Notes: a model not told the origin generated them from the letters alone. Shown: positions 2,235 to 12,871, counted from the stretch's first letter. The stretch is 64,000 nt of DNA from Pseudomonadota bacterium (GCA_043821645.1 JBDRCO010000101.1:1-64000), one strand, 5' to 3'. Numbers and translations: made by a program.

Positions 2235-3218
2235 TCAGGGCAGGGGCACGCTGCTCGAGCCAAGCGGGCAGTAATTGATCTCGCGCGGCTGCATGGGCTG
2301 GCAGCTGCGGCTGCCGCAGGTGGCGCCGCTGCAGGTGTCGGCGTCACAACTCTGGGGAGCTGTGCAGTCCCCGGCGCTGTAGCAGGTCGTGCCACTGGAC
2401 GAGCACACGTTGCTGCAGTCACTTGCGTCCTGGCAATAACCGCCGCCCTGGCCGCACTGGCCCACGCAGTCTCCGTCGTCCTGGCAGGCCGAGCCGTCGC
2501 CACAGGCACCGAGCCCGCACTCGCTGGACTCGCACTGCACATCGGCGCTGCAGGTCTGGCCTGCTCCCAGCCGCGCTTTGCAGGTGCCGTCACAGATCAG
2601 GTTCTCGGCGCACTCGTACGACGAGTTGCAGGCGGTGCCCGAACCCTTGAGCGAGGCGCACTGGCCGCCATCACAGAACAGGCCGCTGGCACAGCCGAGG
2701 CTTCCGCACGACTCTCCCTTCTTGGCCAGTGCCTTGCATTTTGCCTCGATACACACTGTGTCGACGGCGCATTCGAAATCCCAGAAGCACTCCTCGCCCG
2801 AGCCCTGGGCGCCCTCGAAGGGGCTGTCCGAGCAGGGCTCGGCCATGGGCGATTCCTCGGCCACGATCACGCACTTGCCATCCTTGGGGCGCGAGGCGTC
2901 AAAGCAGGCCGCGGCCGTCTCCTTGTTGAAGGTGCTGCGCCCCTCGGACACCGAGTAAATAGGCTCGGCGTAGTAGCTGCGGCACAGCAGTTCCATGTCT
3001 TGCTTGCAGCGTCCCTCGTCGTTGACATTGTCCTCGGCCAGCAGGGACTCGCGCTGCCGGCTCGAGCAGCACTGGATCATGTTGGCGCACATGAGGCTGG
3101 CCCATTCGGAGCAATAGCTGTCCGCCGACCCGAACAGGCCGAAGCAGCCACTCGAGCCAAGGCTCGCCAGCAGCGCGATGACGAGACCGGGTCGAGCCAG
3201 AGATACTCGTTGGTGCAT
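2235..3218 (-). CDS. Cys-rich secreted lipoprotein (Dickkopf/EGF-like Cys repeats)
   Basis: Start re-assigned to ATG 3218 after AAGGGGGG; lipobox-like LGSSGC; dense GxxC-xxxxxC repeats. Confidence 0.75.
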   Translation of the reverse strand: MHQRVSLARPGLVIALLASLGSSGCFGLFGSADSYCSEWASLMCANMIQCCSSRQRESLLAEDNVNDEGRCKQDMELLCRSYYAEPIYSVSEGRSTFNKETAAACFDASRPKDGKCVIVAEESPMAEPCSDSPFEGAQGSGEECFWDFECAVDTVCIEAKCKALAKKGESCGSLGCASGLFCDGGQCASLKGSGTACNSSYECAENLICDGTCKARLGAGQTCSADVQCESSECGLGACGDGSACQDDGDCVGQCGQGGGYCQDASDCSNVCSSSGTTCYSAGDCTAPQSCDADTCSGATCGSRSCQPMQPREINYCPLGSSSVPLP

Positions 3219-3506
3219 CACACCCCCCTTGACGTGAATGGCGAGAAGTTCGCTCTGGGCGGGGAGCAGACCACGGGGCCGCACCTGGGGGCAAGGTCGT
3301 GTGCTGTTGTCAGCGAGATCTCAGAAAACCGATGATCTGCGGTGTGGACGACTCACATCCTGTGGGTTCAAGGGGGCGCAAATCGTGCAGCATCTAGGTG
3401 GGCGTCCTCCCGAACTCTGTGATAAAAAGAAAAGGGTCAGCAATCACGGGAAGATCGCGGCTGTACCCGCGGTCCGGAGCCAACTACGGTCGGTGATCAT
3501 CACGAA

Positions 3507-3630: not shown

Positions 3631-4758
3631 ATGCGCAAGATCCTTGAAAAGGTCGGTTTCACACCCCGCATCTGCGTCTGGGAGCTAACCCTCGCCTGCA
3701 ACATGCAGTGCGGTCACTGTGGATCTCGCGCAGGCAAGGCACGCCCCGACGAGCTGAGCTCCGAGGAGGTCCAGCGCGTGGCCAACGAGCTGGCGGACCT
3801 GGGATGCAAGCGCGTCACCCTGAGCGGCGGCGAACCCATCCTGCGCAAGGACTGGCCCGAGATCGCGCGCACCCTGACCGGGCGCGGGGTCAAGGTCAAC
3901 ATGGTGTCCAACGGCTGGGCCTGGACCCCCGAGACCGTGCGCACGGCCAAGGAGGTCGGGCTCGCCAACGTGTGCTTCAGCATCGACGGCCTCGAGGCGA
4001 CCCACGACGCCATCCGCAAGCCGGGCTCCTATGCCCGGGCCATGAAGGCCTTCGAGTACTGTCGCGAGCTCAAGCTGCCCACGGCCTCGATCATGACCAT
4101 CAACCGCCGCAACCTCGGCGAGATCGACGCCGTGCACGACATGCTGGTCGAGATGGGCGTCACCCTGTGGCAGCCGCAGCTGTCCGACCCCATGGGCAAC
4201 CAGCGCGACAACATCGAGTGGGCCTTTCACCCCGAGGAGCTGCCCGAGATCGAAGACAAGCTGGGCGAGATCATGCGGCGCTCGTCCATGCGCGTCACCG
4301 TGGGCGACAACATCGGTTTCTATGGCCCCAACGAGGAGCTGTTCCGCCAGGAGTCGACCTTTGGCTTCTGGGTCGGCTGCTTCGCCGGTTGCCAGGTGGT
4401 CGGCATCGAGGCCGATGGCAACATCAAGGGCTGCCTGTCGCAGCAAGACCCGGCCTTTGTCGAGGGGAATGTGCGCACCGAGTCGCTGGCGGACATCTGG
4501 TGCAGGCCCGGCGCCTTTGCCTTTAACCGCGAGTTCACCACCGAGCAGCTCGGCGGCTTTTGTGCCGAGTGCCGCTACAACGACATCTGCCGCGGTGGCT
4601 GCACCTGCTCGGCGCACTTCGCCTCGGGCAACAAGTTTGACAATCCGTTCTGTGTGTATCGCGTCAATGAACTTAAAAAGCGCGGAATTGTTGAAAAAAT
4701 TGGTACAGAGCGGGATATCGACGTGGAAAAGCTGCCCATCCAGCCGATCGCTCGATAG
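3631..4758 (+). CDS. Radical SAM/SPASM peptide maturase, PlpX (splicease)-like
   Basis: WELTLACNMQCGHCGSRAG (CxxxCxxC), SGGEP, SIDGLEATHD, WQPQL, GDNIGFYGP; SPASM cysteines GCFAG..GIEADGNIKGC, CAEC-x5-CRGGC, NPFC; GAGGA RBS; directly upstream of small YG-rich peptides. Confidence 0.9.
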   Translation: MRKILEKVGFTPRICVWELTLACNMQCGHCGSRAGKARPDELSSEEVQRVANELADLGCKRVTLSGGEPILRKDWPEIARTLTGRGVKVNMVSNGWAWTPETVRTAKEVGLANVCFSIDGLEATHDAIRKPGSYARAMKAFEYCRELKLPTASIMTINRRNLGEIDAVHDMLVEMGVTLWQPQLSDPMGNQRDNIEWAFHPEELPEIEDKLGEIMRRSSMRVTVGDNIGFYGPNEELFRQESTFGFWVGCFAGCQVVGIEADGNIKGCLSQQDPAFVEGNVRTESLADIWCRPGAFAFNREFTTEQLGGFCAECRYNDICRGGCTCSAHFASGNKFDNPFCVYRVNELKKRGIVEKIGTERDIDVEKLPIQPIAR

Positions 4759-4806
4759 GGAGCGGATCGCCCCTGGGGGGTGTACAATGAGTGAGCGGAG
4801 GAAGCC

Positions 4807-4989
4807 ATGACAGAGCGAGAGATGCGGACCAAGATCGACAGCGTGCTCCGGGATCTCGAAGTGCAAGAGCTCGAGGAGCGCATCGCACCCGTCAAGTGCG
4901 ACAAGAACCCCGACGCGCCCGAGTGTGCCCCCGTGGCGCGCTACGGTGTGGTCGAGGACCCTGTGGTGCGCTACGGCATCGGATTCTAG
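4807..4989 (+). CDS. RiPP precursor peptide A1 (60 aa; 2 x RYG)
   Basis: MTEREMRTKIDSVLRDLEVQELEERIAPVKCDKNPDAPECAPVARYGVVEDPVVRYGIGF; GGAGG RBS; paralog of the next two ORFs. Confidence 0.9.
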   Translation: MTEREMRTKIDSVLRDLEVQELEERIAPVKCDKNPDAPECAPVARYGVVEDPVVRYGIGF

Positions 4990-5011
4990 ACGCGATTCGC
5001 AGGAGGCTGAC

Positions 5012-5206
5012 GTGGACGACAGCAAGATGCGCGACAAGGTCGATCAGGTGCTCAGGGACCTCGAGGTGCAGGCGCTCGAGGAGCGCATCGCACCGGTCAA
5101 GTGCGACAAGAATCCCGAGGCCCCGGAGTGCGGCATCGTGGCCGAGTACGGTGTGGCCCTGTACGGCATTCAGCCGGACTATGGCATCGATCCGGGTGGT
5201 GGTTGA
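5012..5206 (+). CDS. RiPP precursor peptide A2 (64 aa; EYG, LYG, DYG)
   Basis: GTG start at 5012 after AGGAGG (5001-5006): MDDSKMRDKVDQVLRDLEVQALEERIAPVKCDKNPEAPECGIVAEYGVALYGIQPDYGIDPGGG. Confidence 0.9.
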   Translation: MDDSKMRDKVDQVLRDLEVQALEERIAPVKCDKNPEAPECGIVAEYGVALYGIQPDYGIDPGGG

Positions 5207-5235
5207 GCGACGCCACGGTAGTGAGGGAGGCTCTC

Positions 5236-5430
5236 ATGAATGATCGCAGCATGCGCGATCGCATCGACCACGTGCTGGCGACCCTCGAGGTGCAAGCGCT
5301 CGAAGAACGCATCGCACCGGTCAAGTGTGACAAGAACCCCGAGGCGGCCGAGTGCCAGGTGCAGCCCATGTACGGCGTCACCATGTACGGCATCGAGCCC
5401 ATGTATGGCGTCGACCCGGGCGGCGGCTGA
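5236..5430 (+). CDS. RiPP precursor peptide A3 (64 aa; 3 x MYG)
   Basis: ATG at 5236 after GGGAGG (5225-5230): MNDRSMRDRIDHVLATLEVQALEERIAPVKCDKNPEAAECQVQPMYGVTMYGIEPMYGVDPGGG. Confidence 0.9.
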   Translation: MNDRSMRDRIDHVLATLEVQALEERIAPVKCDKNPEAAECQVQPMYGVTMYGIEPMYGVDPGGG

Positions 5431-5446
5431 GCGCTGAACCCCGACC

Positions 5447-6658
5447 TTGAACCCTCCCGTTGCTGAGCCCGGGCCCGCGCCCGCGCGGCCACACCTTCGA
5501 ACCGATCTGCAGCTCGCTCCCGCGGTCGAACGCGGTGAGCCGTGCACCTACGTGCGCGATCCCGTGCGCCGGAGCTTCTACAGGTTGGGGGACACGGCGC
5601 TGCGCGCGGTGCAGCTGATGGACGGTGAACACGACGCCCGCAGCATCGCCGCCGAGGTCTCGGCCGAGCTCCACGTCGACATCCCGGTGGCGTCCATCGA
5701 GAAGCTCATCACCACCCTCGACGGGCATGGCTTCCTCTCCAATGGATCACCACCTGCGCCTGCTTCCCGCGTGCGTGGTGGGGTGTTCTTCCTCGTCATC
5801 CCGCTCATCGATCCCGATCGCTGGTTGCAGATCCTGGCTCCGCTGTGGCGCGTGCTGGTGTCGCGCCCGGTGGCCGTCGTCATCGGCGTGCTCATCACGG
5901 CGGGCGCGCTGTTGCACCTGCCGTGGCTGGGAGGGGCGCACACCTGGACCGGCGGCACGCTTGGGATGCGCGACCTGGTGGCCTTTTACCTGGTGGTCTC
6001 CGCCGCCATCGTGCTGCACGAACTCGGTCACGCGGTCACGCTCAAGGCCATGGGCGGCGAGGTCCACGAGATGGGCCTGCTGCTGCTGTACCTGCAACCC
6101 TGCTTCTACTGCAACGTGAGCGACGCCTACCTGCTGCCGCGCCGGCGCCGACTGTGGGTCTCCTTCGCCGGTCTCTACGTCGAGCTCGGGGCCTGGGGCG
6201 CGGCCTCGCTGGTGGCCCAGGCCCTGGGACCGGACCATGCCGCGGGGCGGGTGGCGCACCTGGTGACGACGGTGATCGGGCTCAAGGCGCTGCTGTTCAA
6301 CCTCAACCCGCTGATCAAGCTCGACGGCTACTACCTGCTGGTCGACCTGGTACAGATCCCCAACCTGCGCCAGCGCGCCTTTTCCCACCTGGCCCGGACC
6401 CTCGGCCTGCGCCGCGGTGACGACGGGCCCACCCCCCGGGACACGAGGGAGAAGGGCATCCTCCTGGCCTACGCGAGCCTGGCGCTGCTGTTCCTGGTGG
6501 GGCTGTTCGGGGTGCTGGCGCAGCGCCTGTGGCGGGTGCTGCAGGACGGGGAGTGGACCGTCTCGGTGCTGTTCCTTGCAATCATCTGCGCTTTCTTGCT
6601 GCTGCGCGGGTTGCGTTTCGCGTTCGGTCTGCGCCGCGCCGGGTCCGCGCAGGTCTGA
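5447..6658 (+). CDS. PqqD/RRE domain fused to site-2 (M50) membrane metalloprotease
   Basis: N-terminal LRTDL..YVRDPVRRSFYRLGDTALRAVQLMDGEHDARSIAAEV..LDGHGFL has the PqqD/RRE pattern; HELGH zinc motif; NLNPLIKLDGY motif; several TM helices. Start codon (TTG) uncertain. Confidence 0.85.
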   Translation: MNPPVAEPGPAPARPHLRTDLQLAPAVERGEPCTYVRDPVRRSFYRLGDTALRAVQLMDGEHDARSIAAEVSAELHVDIPVASIEKLITTLDGHGFLSNGSPPAPASRVRGGVFFLVIPLIDPDRWLQILAPLWRVLVSRPVAVVIGVLITAGALLHLPWLGGAHTWTGGTLGMRDLVAFYLVVSAAIVLHELGHAVTLKAMGGEVHEMGLLLLYLQPCFYCNVSDAYLLPRRRRLWVSFAGLYVELGAWGAASLVAQALGPDHAAGRVAHLVTTVIGLKALLFNLNPLIKLDGYYLLVDLVQIPNLRQRAFSHLARTLGLRRGDDGPTPRDTREKGILLAYASLALLFLVGLFGVLAQRLWRVLQDGEWTVSVLFLAIICAFLLLRGLRFAFGLRRAGSAQV

Positions 6659-6660
6659 AC

Positions 6661-7026
6661 TCAACCCCAGCGCCCCGCCGAGCTCGACGACGGCAGCCGC
6701 CCCAAGTCGCGATCCATGCGCCGGCTCAGCTTGTACCAGCGCTGCACCGAGTTCTCGAGCAGGGCATAGTGGAAGATGTATGGCACGAGCAGCGCGAGCA
6801 GCAGCACCAGCAGCACCAGGCTCCACAGCTGTGGCCGGGCCAGGTAGATGACGAAGGCCGCCAGGCTGAATACACCAAAGGCGAGCAGCACCAGCAGGTG
6901 GGCCAGGCGTTCCGCCTGAAGGTATCCCACTTGCCTCTCGTGATAGGCGCGAAAGCGACTCAGGGTGCCCGGCTCGGCCAGGGCCAGTTCCGCGGCGGTC
7001 TCGTGTTCGCGGATGAAGTGCTTCAT
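6661..7026 (-). CDS. Small membrane protein (2 TM), hypothetical
   Basis: MKHFIREHE..QAERLAHLLVLLAF..PYIFHYALLENSVQRWY; start re-assigned to ATG 7026. Confidence 0.7.
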   Translation of the reverse strand: MKHFIREHETAAELALAEPGTLSRFRAYHERQVGYLQAERLAHLLVLLAFGVFSLAAFVIYLARPQLWSLVLLVLLLALLVPYIFHYALLENSVQRWYKLSRRMDRDLGRLPSSSSAGRWG

Positions 7027-7161: not shown

Positions 7162-7941
7162 ATGGACCTCGCCGTCGAGAACTACTGCAACGATATATGG
7201 CCTCTGGTCTACGAGCCCTACTACGCCGAGGACCACGCCAGGGAGTTCCCCTTTTACAGCGCCGTCGCCGCCGAGCGCCCGGGTCCGGTGCTCGAGGTGG
7301 GAAGCGGTACCGGCGTCCTGTTCTACAAGCTGCTGCGTGGCGGTGTCGACGTGCAGGGCATCGATGTGTCGCCCACCATGCTCGACGCGCTGTACCGGGC
7401 GGCGCGCGACGATGACGAACGTGTACAGGCGCTGCAGCGGGTGCGAATGCAGGACATGACCGCGCTCGATCTGGAGACCCGCTTCTCGCAGATCTTGGTG
7501 CCGGCCCGGGCCTTTTTACACGTCGCCGCGCTGGAGGCACAGCTGGCGACCCTGCGCGGCTTTCATGCCCAGCTCGCCGAGGGTGGCCGCCTCGCCCTCA
7601 ACTTCTTCGTGCCCGACCTGCAGCAGATCCTGGACGCGCATCGCAGCCCGCAGGAAGAACCCTTCGACGCCTTCGTGCATCCGCGCAGCGGCGCACCCAT
7701 CGAGCTGACCATCCGTCGCGAGGTGCCGGACCTGAGCGCGCAGCGGTTCATCGTGACCTGGCGTTTCAGGTGGGAGGACCAGGAGCGCGTCACCCGCATG
7801 GATCTGCGCTGGGTTCACCGTGACGAGTTCGAGCTGATGCTCCGGCTGGCTGGGTTCCGGTGCTGGAAACTGTTCGGCGAGAACGATCGCTCCGGGTTCG
7901 GGCCGCACAGCAACGAGATGTTCTGGCTCGTCGAGAAGTAG
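7162..7941 (+). CDS. Class I SAM-dependent methyltransferase
   Basis: VLEVGSGTG, GIDVSPTML, QDMTALDL, LAEGGRLAL; start re-assigned to ATG 7162. Confidence 0.9.
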   Translation: MDLAVENYCNDIWPLVYEPYYAEDHAREFPFYSAVAAERPGPVLEVGSGTGVLFYKLLRGGVDVQGIDVSPTMLDALYRAARDDDERVQALQRVRMQDMTALDLETRFSQILVPARAFLHVAALEAQLATLRGFHAQLAEGGRLALNFFVPDLQQILDAHRSPQEEPFDAFVHPRSGAPIELTIRREVPDLSAQRFIVTWRFRWEDQERVTRMDLRWVHRDEFELMLRLAGFRCWKLFGENDRSGFGPHSNEMFWLVEK

Positions 7942-8916: not shown

Positions 8917-9921
8917 ATGCATGAATCCATGACGCGTCCCACGCTCGTCCTTGGTGCCCTCACGGCGCTGTCCTGTGCCATGACCTCGTGCGCCAGCGAC
9001 AAGGCGGCCAAGGTCGAACCCACGGCCGCCGCTCCGGCGGTCGCGCTGTCGCCGGCCGATCAGGAAGAGCGGGCGCGCCTGCAGAAGGTCTTCCAGAGCA
9101 TCTTCGATGTGCCGGCCGACGCCACCATCGCGCCGGAACTGCTCGAGCCCAAGACCCTGGCCGATGCTCAGAACATCGTGCGCAGTGACAACGTGTCGCT
9201 GTTCCCCCGGGCCGACGCCGTGTTCACGGCGCATCTCGCCCAGAAGCCAGACGACCTGGACAACCTGACCTGGCATGCCCAGCTGTACCTGGCCTGGGCC
9301 GATTCCACCGCCCTGACCGGCAAGACCCTGAGCACCAGCCTGCAGAAGCTAGGTGGCCAGCGTGACGAGCTGAAGCAGAAGCTCGACGCGGGAGAGCTGG
9401 AGGGGGCGGCCAAGCTCAAGGCCCGGGCCCGGCTCGACGAGATCGACTGGCTGCTGCCGCTCGTCGAGGAGGTGCAGGGCCGGCTGCAACAGGTCGCGCG
9501 CGAAAAGATCGCCATCGGCGAGACCAAGACCCAGGCCATCCTGGCCAGGCACGGTGACAGCTACAAGGGCTTCCGCCTCGGCGCGGACCTGGCGCGCATC
9601 AGCGAGGACTGGGACCGTTATTCCGAGCGCGTGCAGAAGCTCGAGCAAAGGAACCCGGACTCCAACGGGCTGCGCTTCCTCAAGGGTGTGGTGGCCTTCT
9701 CGCGGGACAAGGACTACGCCGAGGCCGTGCGTTTCTTGCAGGAGGCCATCGCCAAGGATCCGAAGTTCACCAAGGCGCAGTACTACCTGGCCCTGACCTA
9801 CCTCAACCAGCGCAAGTTCGACGACGCCGTGCAGGCCCTGGATCGCACCCTCGAGCTGAGCCCGGGTCACCCCTTCGCCAACGCGGTGCGCAGCTACATC
9901 ACCCGCGCCCGGGGATACTGA
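8917..9921 (+). CDS. Tetratricopeptide-repeat lipoprotein
   Basis: Lipobox-like MTSC; C-terminal TPRs (YAEAVRFLQEAIAKDPKFTKAQYYLALTY..ALELSPGH); AAGGAG RBS. Confidence 0.85.
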   Translation: MHESMTRPTLVLGALTALSCAMTSCASDKAAKVEPTAAAPAVALSPADQEERARLQKVFQSIFDVPADATIAPELLEPKTLADAQNIVRSDNVSLFPRADAVFTAHLAQKPDDLDNLTWHAQLYLAWADSTALTGKTLSTSLQKLGGQRDELKQKLDAGELEGAAKLKARARLDEIDWLLPLVEEVQGRLQQVAREKIAIGETKTQAILARHGDSYKGFRLGADLARISEDWDRYSERVQKLEQRNPDSNGLRFLKGVVAFSRDKDYAEAVRFLQEAIAKDPKFTKAQYYLALTYLNQRKFDDAVQALDRTLELSPGHPFANAVRSYITRARGY

Positions 9922-12291
9922 GACCGGGCGCCCTGCGTCGCAGTGCGAGCCCCAGCAGCAGGGCGCCGCCCCACAGCAGACCAGAACGCGATGTCACGGT
10001 GAGGCCGCTGCACAGGCCCACCTGGTGTGATCCGCCCAGACTGCCGTCGCCATAGTTGGACCCACGGCGGCGACAGTCCTCGTCGACCCGGCCATCGCAG
10101 TTGTTGTCCACGTCGTCGCGGCACAATTCCTCGACATCGGGGCGGATCTCGGCATTGCCGTCGTCACAGTCCCGCTCCTGGCAGAAGCCGTCGCCGTCGC
10201 CGTCGACGCAGCTCTGGCAGCCGTCGTCGACACTGCCGTTGCAGTCGTTGTCGAGGTCATCGCCGCACTTCTCGGCGTTGCTCGGGTAGACGCTGCTGCG
10301 GCTGTCGTCGCAGTCAACGGGTGCGCAGAAACCATCGCCATCCGCGTCGGTGCAGGCGTCGCAGCCTTCATCCGTCTGGCCGTTGCAGTTGTTGTCGACC
10401 TCGTCGCCGCAGCGCTCGAGGACTCCGGGGTGCACACCGGGATGGTTGTCGTCACAGTCCACGGCCTCGCAAAAGCCGTCGTGGTCGCGGTCCACGCAGG
10501 TGTCGCAGTCCTCGTCGGTCCGGCCGTCGCAGTTGTTGTCCCTGCCGTCGCCGCACAGCTCGCTGGCGCCCGGGTGGTCGCTGGCGTTCTGGTCATTGCA
10601 GTCCTGAGCCTGGCAGCTGCCGTCGCCATCGGCGTCGATGCACAGACACACCCCCACGCCGTCGAGACCCTGGAACACCGGCGCGTCGCAGGCCTCGTCG
10701 CTACCGCAGTCGGTGTTGCCCAGGCAGAAGGGGACGCAGCGGCCGGTGGTCGCGCCGCTGGCTCCAGCGCACATCAGGCCGTCGGCGCACTCGAGCAGAT
10801 CCCCGAGCTCGACATTGCAGGCCGCGCCCTCGGCGATGCCGTGACTGGCGTAGCAGCTGGTGGCACCGGTGCGCGTCGGATAGCAGCCCAGGCCGCCGGA
10901 GCAGCCTCCGCCACGCAGGTCACAGTTGTCGGGGGGAAAGCACACGTCGATGGCACCCGCGCAGCTGCTGTACACGCAGTCGAGCCAGGCCGTGTCGTCG
11001 GTGATGGTGTCGCACGAGGTCGAAAAACAACCGTTCATGGTGTCGAGCTGGTCCTGGGCCGTGACCGTGCCGCGTCCGTAGCAGGCGGCGGTGCAGGCGC
11101 TGTCCCCCGACGTGCAGTCGACCATGCAGGTGTAGATCTGCTCGCAGCTCTCGCTCCCGCTGGCCTGTGGAAAGCACGCGCTCTTCTGGGCCCCGCACGA
11201 GCTGTCCGCGCAGGTCCAGTACGCGTCATCGCTGAGCCCCGCGCAGTTCTCATCGAGGCAGGCGAGCAGTGTGTTGAGCTGCGAACGCGCATTCTCGGTG
11301 CCCTGCAGGTAGCAGTTGCTCTGGCAACCCTGGTCGCTGCCGCAATCGCCCATGCAGCTGTAGATCTCGTCGCAGCTCAGGGTCTCGCACAGGGCGTTGC
11401 TGCAGGTGCCATTGCTCTGGCAGGCCTGGGCGCAGGTGCAGACCGACGGCGAGGTGAGGCAGTTTGGCGGTGCCACGCCCATCTGCTGCGCGATCCACGT
11501 CGAGTAGTGGTCGACGCGCATGTGGTTGTAGACACCCATGCAGGGATCGCCACCGCTGGAGCCAACTGTCGAGTTGACCCCGATGACGCGATAGCCATCC
11601 GCGAACTGGTACAGTCCTGGCCCGCCCGAGTCGCCAAAGCAGATCCCCGAGCCGCTGTATTCACCGCTGTAGGTGGCGCTGTCCACCCAGGACACTGCCA
11701 CGGTGGCCGAGCGCTTGATGCCGCCGCCTGTGCGGTTGATGCCCTCGGTGACCCCGAAGCCCACGTAGAGGACACTGCCATCGACGAAGGCACCGTCCAT
11801 GGTGGTGGTGTTGTAAGGGTAGGTCGGGACGCCGACGGCGGGCTGAGACAGATGGACCAGGCCCACGTCGTTCTCGATGGTGCTGCTGTTCCACTGCGGG
11901 TGGACGTAGAAGGCGTCGGTGGGCAGGAAGGTCCCTGTCGACGGGCGCTGTGCCGAGGCCGTGGGATTGGCGTCGCTGCCCACGAAGAAGCGCACCATGC
12001 TCGGGGTGAGCGCGAGGTCCTCGCTGGTATCCAGGCAATGGGCTGCGGTCAGGACCCATTGCGGGGCGATCAGGGTGCCGGTGCAAAAAGAACCCTGGTA
12101 GCCGTAGCCCGGAACCTCGTAGGTCAAGGCACCCACGCCGAGCCAGCCACTCTCGCTGACGCCGCCCACGATGGCTTCACGCTGCGAACCCGCACGGGAG
12201 TCCAGGTCGCCTGGGGACAGGCGGTGGCGAGCACGGCCACGATCCAGGTTGCGGTCAGGCACATCTGCCATCGAGTCGCGCTGCGTGTCAT
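9899..12291 (-). CDS. Trypsin-like (S1) serine protease lipoprotein with Cys-rich and DxDGDG repeats and C-terminal MYXO-CTERM-like anchor; apparent frameshift near 12213-12216
   Basis: AIVGG, LTAAHC, ENDVGL, CFGDSGGP. Signal peptide MTRSATRWQMCLTATWIVAVLATAC (ATG 12291, AGGGAG RBS) is in a different frame from the protease body. Ends C..hydrophobic..RRR. Confidence 0.85.
10073..10642 (-). repeat. Four 48-aa putative metal-binding repeats (CxDxDGDG..DCDD..HPG..E.CGD..DNNCxG..DE.C)
   Basis: Visible in the translation of the protease C-terminal region. Confidence 0.85.
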
Positions 12292-12871
12292 TCCGGTCTC
12301 CCTGTCGCTCATCTCTTGAGAGGACGCCGCCGTGCAGCTGCCGTCGCAGAGCCCGGCTGTGTGGCCGTAGAGGAATATCCGCAGGGGTGCTGATTGATCG
12401 AAAAAAGTCATTTATTTCATATAGATGTGACGAAGAACACATCTCGCAGGTCGCCTTTCGTGAGCGGGCGCACGTTGCGCTGCGTGGATGTGATCGACGG
12501 CACGCGAGATCTTGGGGCCTGTGCTGGAACCTCGATCCGCCCCGGGAGCTTTGGCGGATAGCGCGCAAATACCGCTCGCCGACGAGGGCGGGTTACTGCT
12601 TCAGGAACTCAGGCTGACCGCGTCCGGTGGCGTCGGACGTCGAGTCGGGCGCCGGTGCCACGCATCGAATAACCGTCGCTGGAAGTTGCCATGGTGCGGG
12701 GCTGCGACCTCGTATCCGGGGAGACGTCTCAAGAATGCAGCGGCAAGAACGTGTGCTGTGCGCGCGGTCACACCGCGGATGTGATGCAGCGCACCCTCGT
12801 CGAGAAAGCTCGGCGCGGACCGCCAACTCCAGGGGTCGCGAGATAAGCTGATCGACATGCGTCACCATGAA

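Follow-up and report, generated by a model that had tools for sequence, protein, structure and literature searches.

A putative splicease operon with an RRE-fused site-2 protease in an uncultured high-GC bacterium

Results

Gene content of the locus

The DNA analyzed here (the window) is a stretch of 64,000 nucleotides (nt) (GCA_043821645.1 JBDRCO010000101.1:1-64000), contig C101 of an uncultured, high-GC Pseudomonadota bacterium whose assembly comprises 7.07 Mb in 140 contigs and is 94.7% complete; named homologues come from metagenome-assembled genomes (MAGs) of Myxococcota and "Deltaproteobacteria." Reading of the open reading frames (ORFs) at positions 3631-6658 of the plus strand gives five codirectional genes, for a radical S-adenosylmethionine (rSAM)/SPASM enzyme, three paralogous peptides and a membrane protease, with gaps in gene order of 48, 22, 29, and 16 nt and no additional small ORF among them. 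A preliminary description, made from the sequence alone, had read this as a self-contained locus for ribosomally synthesized peptides with post-translational modifications (RiPPs), tightly spaced and with a ribosome-binding site (RBS) for each peptide, and in all these respects it was right: the five genes lie where it had placed them, each of the three peptides is preceded by a Shine-Dalgarno sequence, and together the genes make up a self-contained RiPP operon, with the maturase first, the precursors next, and the peptidase last. Its chemistry is probably of the spliceotide kind, with tyramine excised at x-Tyr-Gly sites. The features are as follows.

3631-4758, plus strand: radical SAM/SPASM peptide maturase of the splicease superfamily, 375 amino acids (aa) (ORF, upstream GGTGAGGAA, Pfam, NCBIfam, AlphaFold2 (AF2) model, trees)
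3697-3720, plus strand: CxxxCxxC radical SAM cluster motif, C23, C27, and C30 (CNMQCGHC; invariant in 15 and in 103 homologues)
4378-4653, plus strand: SPASM region with seven conserved Cys, C250, C268, C311, C314, C320, C324, and C341 (Pfam SPASM at residues 250-314; invariant in alignments)
4807-4989, plus strand: precursor 1, 60 aa, RBS GGAGGAAG; core after C40 (4927-4986) APVARYGVVEDPVVRYGIGF, with two R-Y-G sites (ORF, RBS, alignment)
5012-5206, plus strand: precursor 2, 64 aa from the GTG at 5012; core (5132-5203) GIVAEYGVALYGIQPDYGIDPGGG, with E-Y-G, L-Y-G, and D-Y-G (ORF, RBS, alignment)
5236-5430, plus strand: precursor 3, 64 aa, RBS GGGAGG; core (5356-5427) QVQPMYGVTMYGIEPMYGVDPGGG, with three M-Y-G (ORF, RBS, alignment)
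5447-6658, plus strand: intramembrane site-2 (M50) metalloprotease fused to a RiPP recognition element (RRE), 403 aa, predicted leader peptidase (NF041824, AF2, Foldseek, homologues)
5492-5731, plus strand: RRE (PqqD-like) domain of the protease, approximately residues 16-95 (AF2 fold, Foldseek, weak Pfam PqqD)
6017-6031, plus strand: HExxH zinc site of the protease, H191, E192, and H195 (HELGH; invariant in 35 aligned homologues)
6305-6328, plus strand: NPLxxxDG motif of the M50 protease, N287-G294 (invariant in 35 homologues)

The RBS of precursor 2 (AGGAGG) lies 5 nt 5' of its GTG, with an alternative start at ATG 5027. The same gene order recurs in the genome of a sister genus (G001, with an rSAM enzyme 78% identical) and in two metagenome contigs (L120 and L122), which carry five, two, and five precursor genes, respectively. 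Between the window and the G001 locus, conservation is confined to an OmpA-family gene, the rSAM gene, the precursors, and the protease; a methyltransferase gene (7171-7941) and a membrane ORF (6661-7026) were rejected as cluster members because they are not conserved there, and no transporter gene linked to the operon was found at the locus.

One may ask whether the small ORFs are genes at all, or whether the locus has decayed and yields no product, since the three peptides match no Pfam or NCBIfam family (Nif11 and NHLP leader families included) and the protease gene begins with TTG without a clear RBS. Given the RBS before each peptide, the intactness of all catalytic motifs, the retention of frame, leader, and Tyr sites in the window's paralogues and in 22 further family members, and an operon order conserved across genera, we consider this very improbable indeed.

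The maturase

Pfam recognizes Radical_SAM (E 2.1e-25) and SPASM (E 3.6e-8) domains in the 375-aa enzyme, and in its AF2 model (predicted local distance difference test score, pLDDT, 81.2) a SPASM domain follows a partial TIM barrel. The barrel begins at residue 14, which leaves no space for an RRE at the N-terminus of the maturase, as had been surmised, and the first 100 residues of SkfB have no counterpart in it. The closest solved folds are PqqE, SkfB, SuiB, CteB, and anSME; the best PDB sequence match is SkfB (E 6.5e-27), with none closer. The enzyme is single-copy in its genome, the next SPASM protein being 30% identical.

By NCBIfam score the enzyme is nearest to TIGR04103 (300.5 bits, E 1.5e-89) and TIGR03913 (296 bits), with the third family at 155.8 bits. 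We take the first of these to be the equivalent of the InterPro entry IPR026482. PlpX, the splicease of Pleurocapsa, has been assigned to IPR026482 (review). The series of rSAM motifs on which the preliminary description had based a match to PlpX is present, its key residues being at least 95% conserved among 103 superfamily members, some of which exceed the cut-off of TIGR04103 or of TIGR03913; W17, W180, P201, E260, K266, and S270 are among the residues kept in at least 95% of these rows and absent from three to four outgroup SPASM enzymes. The locus thus has a PlpX-homologous rSAM/SPASM enzyme with intact cluster motifs and, in the precursor cores, x-Tyr-Gly sites, both of which belong to the functional definition of spliceotides.

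Precursor peptides

A word-based search of 5.8 billion clusters returned nine precursor proteins, two of them the window's own, and a DNA-pattern scan of metagenome contigs found five contigs carrying 10 further precursor genes. A profile search with 15 precursors against 1.84 billion representatives gave 18 matches at E <=0.001, of which 14 are peptides (53-111 aa) built to one plan with the window precursors; the remaining four (1021-7497 aa) lack the RIAPVKC-type motif and were set aside as compositional. The search for loci with the LEERIAPVKC leader suggested in the preliminary description yielded further members of the family.

The precursors begin with an N-terminal segment of moderate conservation, M(N/D)DxxMRxxVDxVLxxL, continue with LEERIAPVKC(D/E)KNP(E/D)APEC, a block that is close to invariant, and end in a hypervariable core of 14-26 residues. 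L22, E23, A27, P28, C31, P35, and C40 are invariant even across the wider family. Within the 15 close precursors, 35 of 39 Tyr stand in the context x-Y-G-[V/I], as do all eight in the window peptides (RYG twice in precursor 1; EYG, LYG, and DYG in precursor 2; MYG three times in precursor 3), which bears out the description of these as multi-YG precursors. Sites of this kind also occur beside true TIGR04103 enzymes. Position x is occupied by M (9 sites), R (9), L (7), E (5), D (2), A (2), or K (1), and the residue after Gly is V at 23 sites and I at 12. Variation at x beside an unchanging Y-G is what one would expect if x turns into the product residue. Tyr is absent from all of the leaders, Y46 is invariant in the 15 precursors, and the three window precursors end in F, G, and G. 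Two metagenome contigs (L118 and L121) encode precursors with an extra Cys pair within the core (QAVALYSVECTG(T/S)DCGVPLPTRYGIGF), in which the first Y-G is replaced by Y-S.

The two Cys of the conserved block raise the question of whether the enzyme instead links C31 and C40 to the core by thioethers (of sactionine or ranthionine type) or other bridges, the YG sites being structural features. Neither Cys varies among the 15 close members of the family or among 16 wider ones, the best PDB sequence match is a thioether-forming enzyme, and the seven-Cys SPASM region is complete. Nevertheless, the Cys count is constant at two, whereas a precursor may have from one to three Tyr sites; what the inspected superfamily neighbors have in common is Tyr sites, most of them being without a conserved Cys pair; sactipeptide-type NCBIfam families score no more than 101 bits on the enzyme; and the two Cys in known spliceotide cores have been interpreted as a disulfide. 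We regard the thioether explanation as quite improbable.

Tyr-Gly sites in related loci

Relatives of the enzyme numbered at least 600 in a scan that took a single genome from each species; 79 loci were kept, and 37 of the 79 proteins were scanned against NCBIfam. Thirteen of these, all cyanobacterial, lie above the TIGR04103 cut-off (802-862 bits); seven, from Pseudomonas, Burkholderiaceae, Chromobacterium, and Thermoanaerobaculia, lie above that of TIGR03913 (626-1042 bits); and 17 lie below both. A neighboring or fused partner with x-Tyr-Gly sites was present in most of the superfamily loci inspected, while some (e.g., L071, L062, and L112) had no x-Tyr-Gly ORF.

The partners are diverse. 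Cyanobacterial TIGR04103 enzymes adjoin Nif11-type peptides with LYG or VYG cores, ending ALYGIF, PVYGLPP, or PLYGIVIDPPVQALYGVVV, and TIGR03913 enzymes adjoin PYG(V/T)AI peptides (e.g., PYGVAI) or LYGVAI. Partners in Myxococcota include zinc-ribbon proteins with up to five xYGAPPP repeats, proteins with QPMYGV repeats, and rSAM-substrate fusions. Cores of QPMYGV type, like that of precursor 3, adjoin TIGR04103-clade enzymes at L029 and L102, the former locus encoding a 184-aa protein with five QPMYGV repeats. Among enzymes of about 370 aa, the sites are looser: LLYG(I/V)NIW and YYGIGI at L043, and a terminus PPYGAPDYGAPVYGF at L076. At L025-L027 the enzymes themselves bear fused Cys-rich repeats with C(D/E)YG(V/I). 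These natural fusions (L025:5178-7124, minus strand; L026:5558-8098, minus strand; L027:5962-7308, plus strand; also L047 and L051) have, beyond a short hydrophobic segment, Cys-rich tails with repeated CC-E-C-(D/E)-Y-G-(V/I)-x-P-P units, so that enzyme and putative substrate form one polypeptide, and they make up a clade of their own in the trees described below.

Phylogenetic placement and the nature of the modification

The best reading of the locus, and one that we hold to be probable though well short of certain, is a binary splicease system in which tyramine would be excised at up to eight sites in the three peptides, with the leader then removed by the RRE-fused protease. Tyramine splicing is favored because the nearest families are of the splicease type, because the cores carry x-Y-G sites, and because the operon is conserved. 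MYG and LYG are, moreover, sites experimentally spliced by PlpXY, PcpX, RcsX, and RasX, according to PMC11414181 and other sources.

A number of observations weigh against this reading. The enzyme's scores fall far below the curated cut-offs of both families (725 bits for TIGR04103, of which profile positions 6-360 of 412 are aligned, and 591.75 bits for TIGR03913). Two trees were built, a quick one of 107 rows and a careful one of 66 rows, from which 39 near-duplicates and one long-branch row had been removed. In both, a single clade (support 100* and 100/99, respectively) unites TIGR04103 and TIGR03913 with several Myxococcota groups, and the window enzyme falls outside it. The enzyme belongs to a small clade of its own (nine rows, 99*, and seven rows, 100/97, respectively), placed among the Myxococcota enzymes of about 370 aa and the rSAM-substrate fusions; this outer assemblage as a whole is not supported as monophyletic (53/23). 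Forced monophyly of the window clade with TIGR04103 was rejected by the approximately unbiased (AU) test (delta lnL 147.8, p-AU 4.2e-7), the group for this test having been named after the tree had been seen. Membership of the enzyme in the PlpX-type family is thus ruled out by score, by placement, and by the AU test: of the match to PlpX proposed in the preliminary description, and of the profile and tree comparison it had called for, what stands is that TIGR04103 is the nearest named family. We know of no characterized member of the window enzyme's lineage.

The sites themselves add to the objections. Some Tyr in the precursor family are followed by A, S, or C instead of Gly, and sister subclades of the enzymes of about 370 aa have non-Gly sites, namely LYMAP repeats at L048 and PPY(S/G/K)AP at L044. 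Such sites fit a strict XYG rule poorly. In these two loci the repeats are x-L-Y-M-A-P-x-P-D, in an upstream ORF at 3290-3964 of L048, and P-P-Y-(S/G/K)-A-P, at 177-554 of L044; either the specificity is relaxed there or the chemistry is different. Y-G-[V/I] also fits a three-residue motif of cyclophanes. To be counted in favor of the main reading is a weak hint that the operon is transcribed, in that a single metatranscriptome library contains four 151-nt records identical to 3705-3855, 3840-3990, 4875-5025, and 5099-5249; such RNA libraries can, however, contain DNA. Nothing matching the locus was found in RNA runs X11 and X12, which is no evidence of silence.

It may be, then, that a separate rSAM lineage uses the same operon and the same sites for some other Tyr-directed radical reaction whose product is not a ketoamide; candidates would be a C-C cyclophane joining the Tyr ring to the beta-carbon of the V or I two residues on, or another change of side chain or backbone. 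The position of the enzyme in the trees and its scores under both cut-offs would agree with this, as would the V or I found after G at 35 of 35 sites, the replacement of Y-G by Y-M, Y-S, Y-A, and Y-K in related subclades, and the closeness of the solved folds of the cross-linking SPASM enzymes PqqE, SkfB, SuiB, and CteB. What speaks for splicing instead is that the splicease-type families are nearest by a wide margin (300 vs. <=156 bits) and that the signature residues are held in common with bona fide superfamily members. The cores beside true TIGR04103 enzymes are likewise xYG with I, V, L, or T as the next residue, and the PlpA-derived splice tags are YGVV and YGLP; V or I is therefore not special to the window clade. 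We see in this other chemistry the main contender, though on balance an unlikely one.

It can also be proposed that the lineage of about 370 aa is not a splicease lineage at all and carries out a Tyr-centered modification not yet described, at Y-G-[V/I] here and at Y-M/S/A/K in the sisters, with the Cys-x8-Cys block presenting the substrate and the RRE-fused protease coupling modification to cleavage and release. We rate this as distinctly unlikely.

The RRE-fused protease

Pfam matches to the 403-aa protease are weak and below gathering (M50, E 3.9e-4; PqqD, E 4.1e-3). NF041824, the daptide intramembrane metalloprotease family, matches residues 36-396 with 209.1 and 208.8 bits, under its cut-off of 300, and no other gene of the type occurs in the genome. 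The AF2 model (pLDDT 88.4; predicted template modeling score, pTM, 0.84) has an N-terminal domain of three strands (22-28, 31-37, and 44-48) and three helices (49-56, 64-75, and 81-93), followed by a helical membrane domain. Foldseek matches the former to 6jx3_B (TMt 0.66) and 5v1u_B (TMt 0.70), leader-bound lasso B1 proteins, and to PqqD (5sxy, TMt 0.61), all with prob 1.00 and E 0.07-0.1; the membrane part matches the Methanocaldococcus jannaschii site-2 protease and SpoIVFB (3b4r and 8vjl), with prob 1.00 and no E below 1e-3. H191, E192, and H195, as well as N287, P288, L289, L292, D293, and G294, are invariant in 35 protease homologues. The protein thus combines an RRE fold with an M50 membrane domain bearing HExxH and NPxxxxDG, and, as had been proposed, the only RRE of the locus resides on the membrane protease.

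The genome has three more PqqD matches, all on contigs other than C101, and two of these adjoin other rSAM genes. These two (G000:C3:8648-9848 and G000:C87:182436-183250) are PqqD-family genes directly 5' of other SPASM rSAM genes and probably belong to separate RiPP or cofactor clusters.

Eight protease homologues are 46-73% identical, and contig sizes shared by the matches to all three components (6314, 27724, 13631, 5941, 19862, 6007, and 43685) suggest that at least eight loci carry the rSAM-precursor-protease trio. Farther relatives (31-39% identical) are "putative peptide zinc metalloprotease" proteins, many of them fused to HlyD-type adaptors. When the protease was compared by tblastn with 94 loci (L024-L117), only L024 and L046 gave matches, so that enzymes of the superfamily are not generally accompanied by the RRE-fused protease. 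L046 (798-1877) and L049 (1245-1868), two contigs of one MAG, represent a second subclade of about 370 aa with an RRE-like/M50 protease near the rSAM gene; the precursors of this subclade are Trp-rich, start MAHIFFEKLENR, and have LYG and YYG sites.

Neighboring genes

The scan for promoters and terminators found one promoter-like site at 3307-3336 (0.4 expected) and no convincing terminator after 6658. Directly upstream of the operon and divergent from it, at 2235-3284 on the minus strand, is a 349-aa Cys-rich, lipoprotein-like ORF without a Pfam family, with no clear conservation beside the G001 locus. The gene at 9899-12568 (minus strand), about 3 kb downstream of the operon, encodes a secreted-looking serine protease of the trypsin family (889 aa) that has four Cys-rich repeats of the MopE type; a link between this protein and the putative protease-inhibitor peptides would be pure speculation.

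Discussion

Proposed pathway and significance

In the pathway that we propose, the rSAM/SPASM enzyme would bind each precursor directly, probably recognizing its N-terminal amphipathic helix together with the LEERIAPVKC(D/E)KNP(E/D)APEC block, and would use the 5'-deoxyadenosyl radical on the Tyr of each x-Y-G-[V/I] site, where the most likely outcome is the splicease reaction, with loss of tyramine. The RRE of the protease would then bind the leader, its site-2 protease domain would cleave the leader at the membrane, and this cleavage may also be tied to release outside the cell. The expected products are short multi-ketoamide peptides, plausibly inhibitors of serine or cysteine proteases and possibly with a Cys31-Cys40 disulfide loop. 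By analogy with daptides, LEERIAP may be the motif bound by the RRE, with the cut after P28, in which case the Cys31-Cys40 loop would stay in the product; alternatively, the protease might cut after C40, where conservation ends.

If splicing does take place, each peptide would carry two or three ketoamide warheads. The splice product derived from Arg would be the alpha-keto-homoarginine unit of the cyclotheonamide-type inhibitors of trypsin and thrombin. The operon would, in addition, provide a compact splicease of 375 aa that needs no Y protein and has a short conserved recognition block, a tool for placing beta-amino acids in peptides and proteins, and it would join the maturation of spliceotides to an intramembrane peptidase guided by an RRE, a combination not found in the literature examined. 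If there is no splicing, the locus would represent a large uncharacterized Myxococcota lineage of Tyr-directed rSAM enzymes with new chemistry.

Comparison with known systems

The protease has two known counterparts. EpeP/YydH, the M50 peptidase of epipeptides (NF058609), is likewise a membrane protein encoded next to an rSAM-modified peptide, which it is believed to cut and export, but the window protease matches it only over residues 178-309 (56.6 bits vs. a cut-off of 225). The leader peptidase of daptides (MpaP type, NF041824) is closer, with the same architecture and homology over residues 36-396; it differs in that the window protease scores 209 bits against the cut-off of 300 and has an rSAM enzyme as its partner. 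A daptide preprint describes removal of the leader by an intramembrane peptidase that depends on an RRE, the leader motif being ELExMEAP with its end at position -1; if the cut follows P28, LEERIAP would agree with it at L(-7), A(-2), and P(-1). An RRE-protease fusion, which the preliminary description had considered unusual, has thus already been described. The window locus does not belong to the daptide class: its precursors lack the invariant C-terminal Thr, neither an oxidative decarboxylase nor an aminotransferase is present among the neighbors scanned, and the methyltransferase at 7171-7941 is unlinked.

The TIGR03913 "GDL motif peptide-associated" systems of Pseudomonas, Burkholderia, Chromobacterium, and Thermoanaerobaculia resemble the window locus in family score, TIGR03913 being second-best, and in the x-Y-G sites of the adjoining peptides, but their enzymes are larger (approximately 480-520 aa), and in their peptides a single N-terminal site precedes a helical GDL region. 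Searches of the literature for TIGR03913, TIGR04103, IPR026482, and "GDL motif" gave nothing useful beyond the review that places PlpX, and, within the collection searched, no paper on TIGR03913; a search for spliceases in Myxococcota found no relevant paper, and none of the RiPP and radical SAM terms looked for occurs in PMC12766979.

With the type I spliceotides of Pleurocapsa (PlpX/PlpY/PlpA and PcpX/Y/A; TIGR04103), the locus shares an enzyme of the same rSAM/SPASM superfamily (approximately 40% identity to TIGR04103 members), the signature residues, x-Y-G core sites including MYG and LYG, and several precursor genes per cluster. Unlike them, it has an enzyme about 40 aa shorter at the C-terminus and outside their clade, no Y protein, a leader that is neither Nif11 nor NHLP, and an RRE-fused site-2 protease as its peptidase; a protease review names the peptidases of spliceotides as peptidase-containing ATP-binding cassette transporters (PCATs). 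The preliminary description had called this layout unusual, and it is true that the locus has neither a Nif11 leader nor a PlpY-type protein, but both absences are normal outside cyanobacteria: according to PMC11414181, the hundreds of non-cyanobacterial spliceotide pathways all lack a Y protein, for which a leader helix may substitute.

A parallel in organization is seen with the binary spliceotides of Rheinheimera (RhaX/RhaA, RcsX/RcsA, and RasX/RasA; type II and other), which are likewise two-component systems without a Y protein. A leader alpha-helix is proposed to stand in that protein's place, and the window precursors similarly begin with a conserved segment predicted to be helix-like. 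RcsA and RasA have two Cys in or near the core, read there as a disulfide, and the window precursors also have a Cys pair near the core. They differ in that this pair is upstream of the sites, within the nearly invariant block, and in having two to three sites per core, three precursors, and the RRE-fused protease that follows them; RhaX and RcsX are not in our trees.

The spliceotide class itself is known, and the layout of the window locus is less unusual than first thought. Scott et al. (2022), as quoted in other papers, list 27 characterized pairs, 939 predicted splicease systems, and YG-rich PlpX-like enzymes in 189 genera, and may already include the present lineage. With that proviso, what appears to be new, as far as we have checked, is an enzyme lineage outside both curated families, its pairing with an RRE-fused site-2 peptidase, and a rare precursor family that combines the LEERIAPVKC...C block with multi-site cores.

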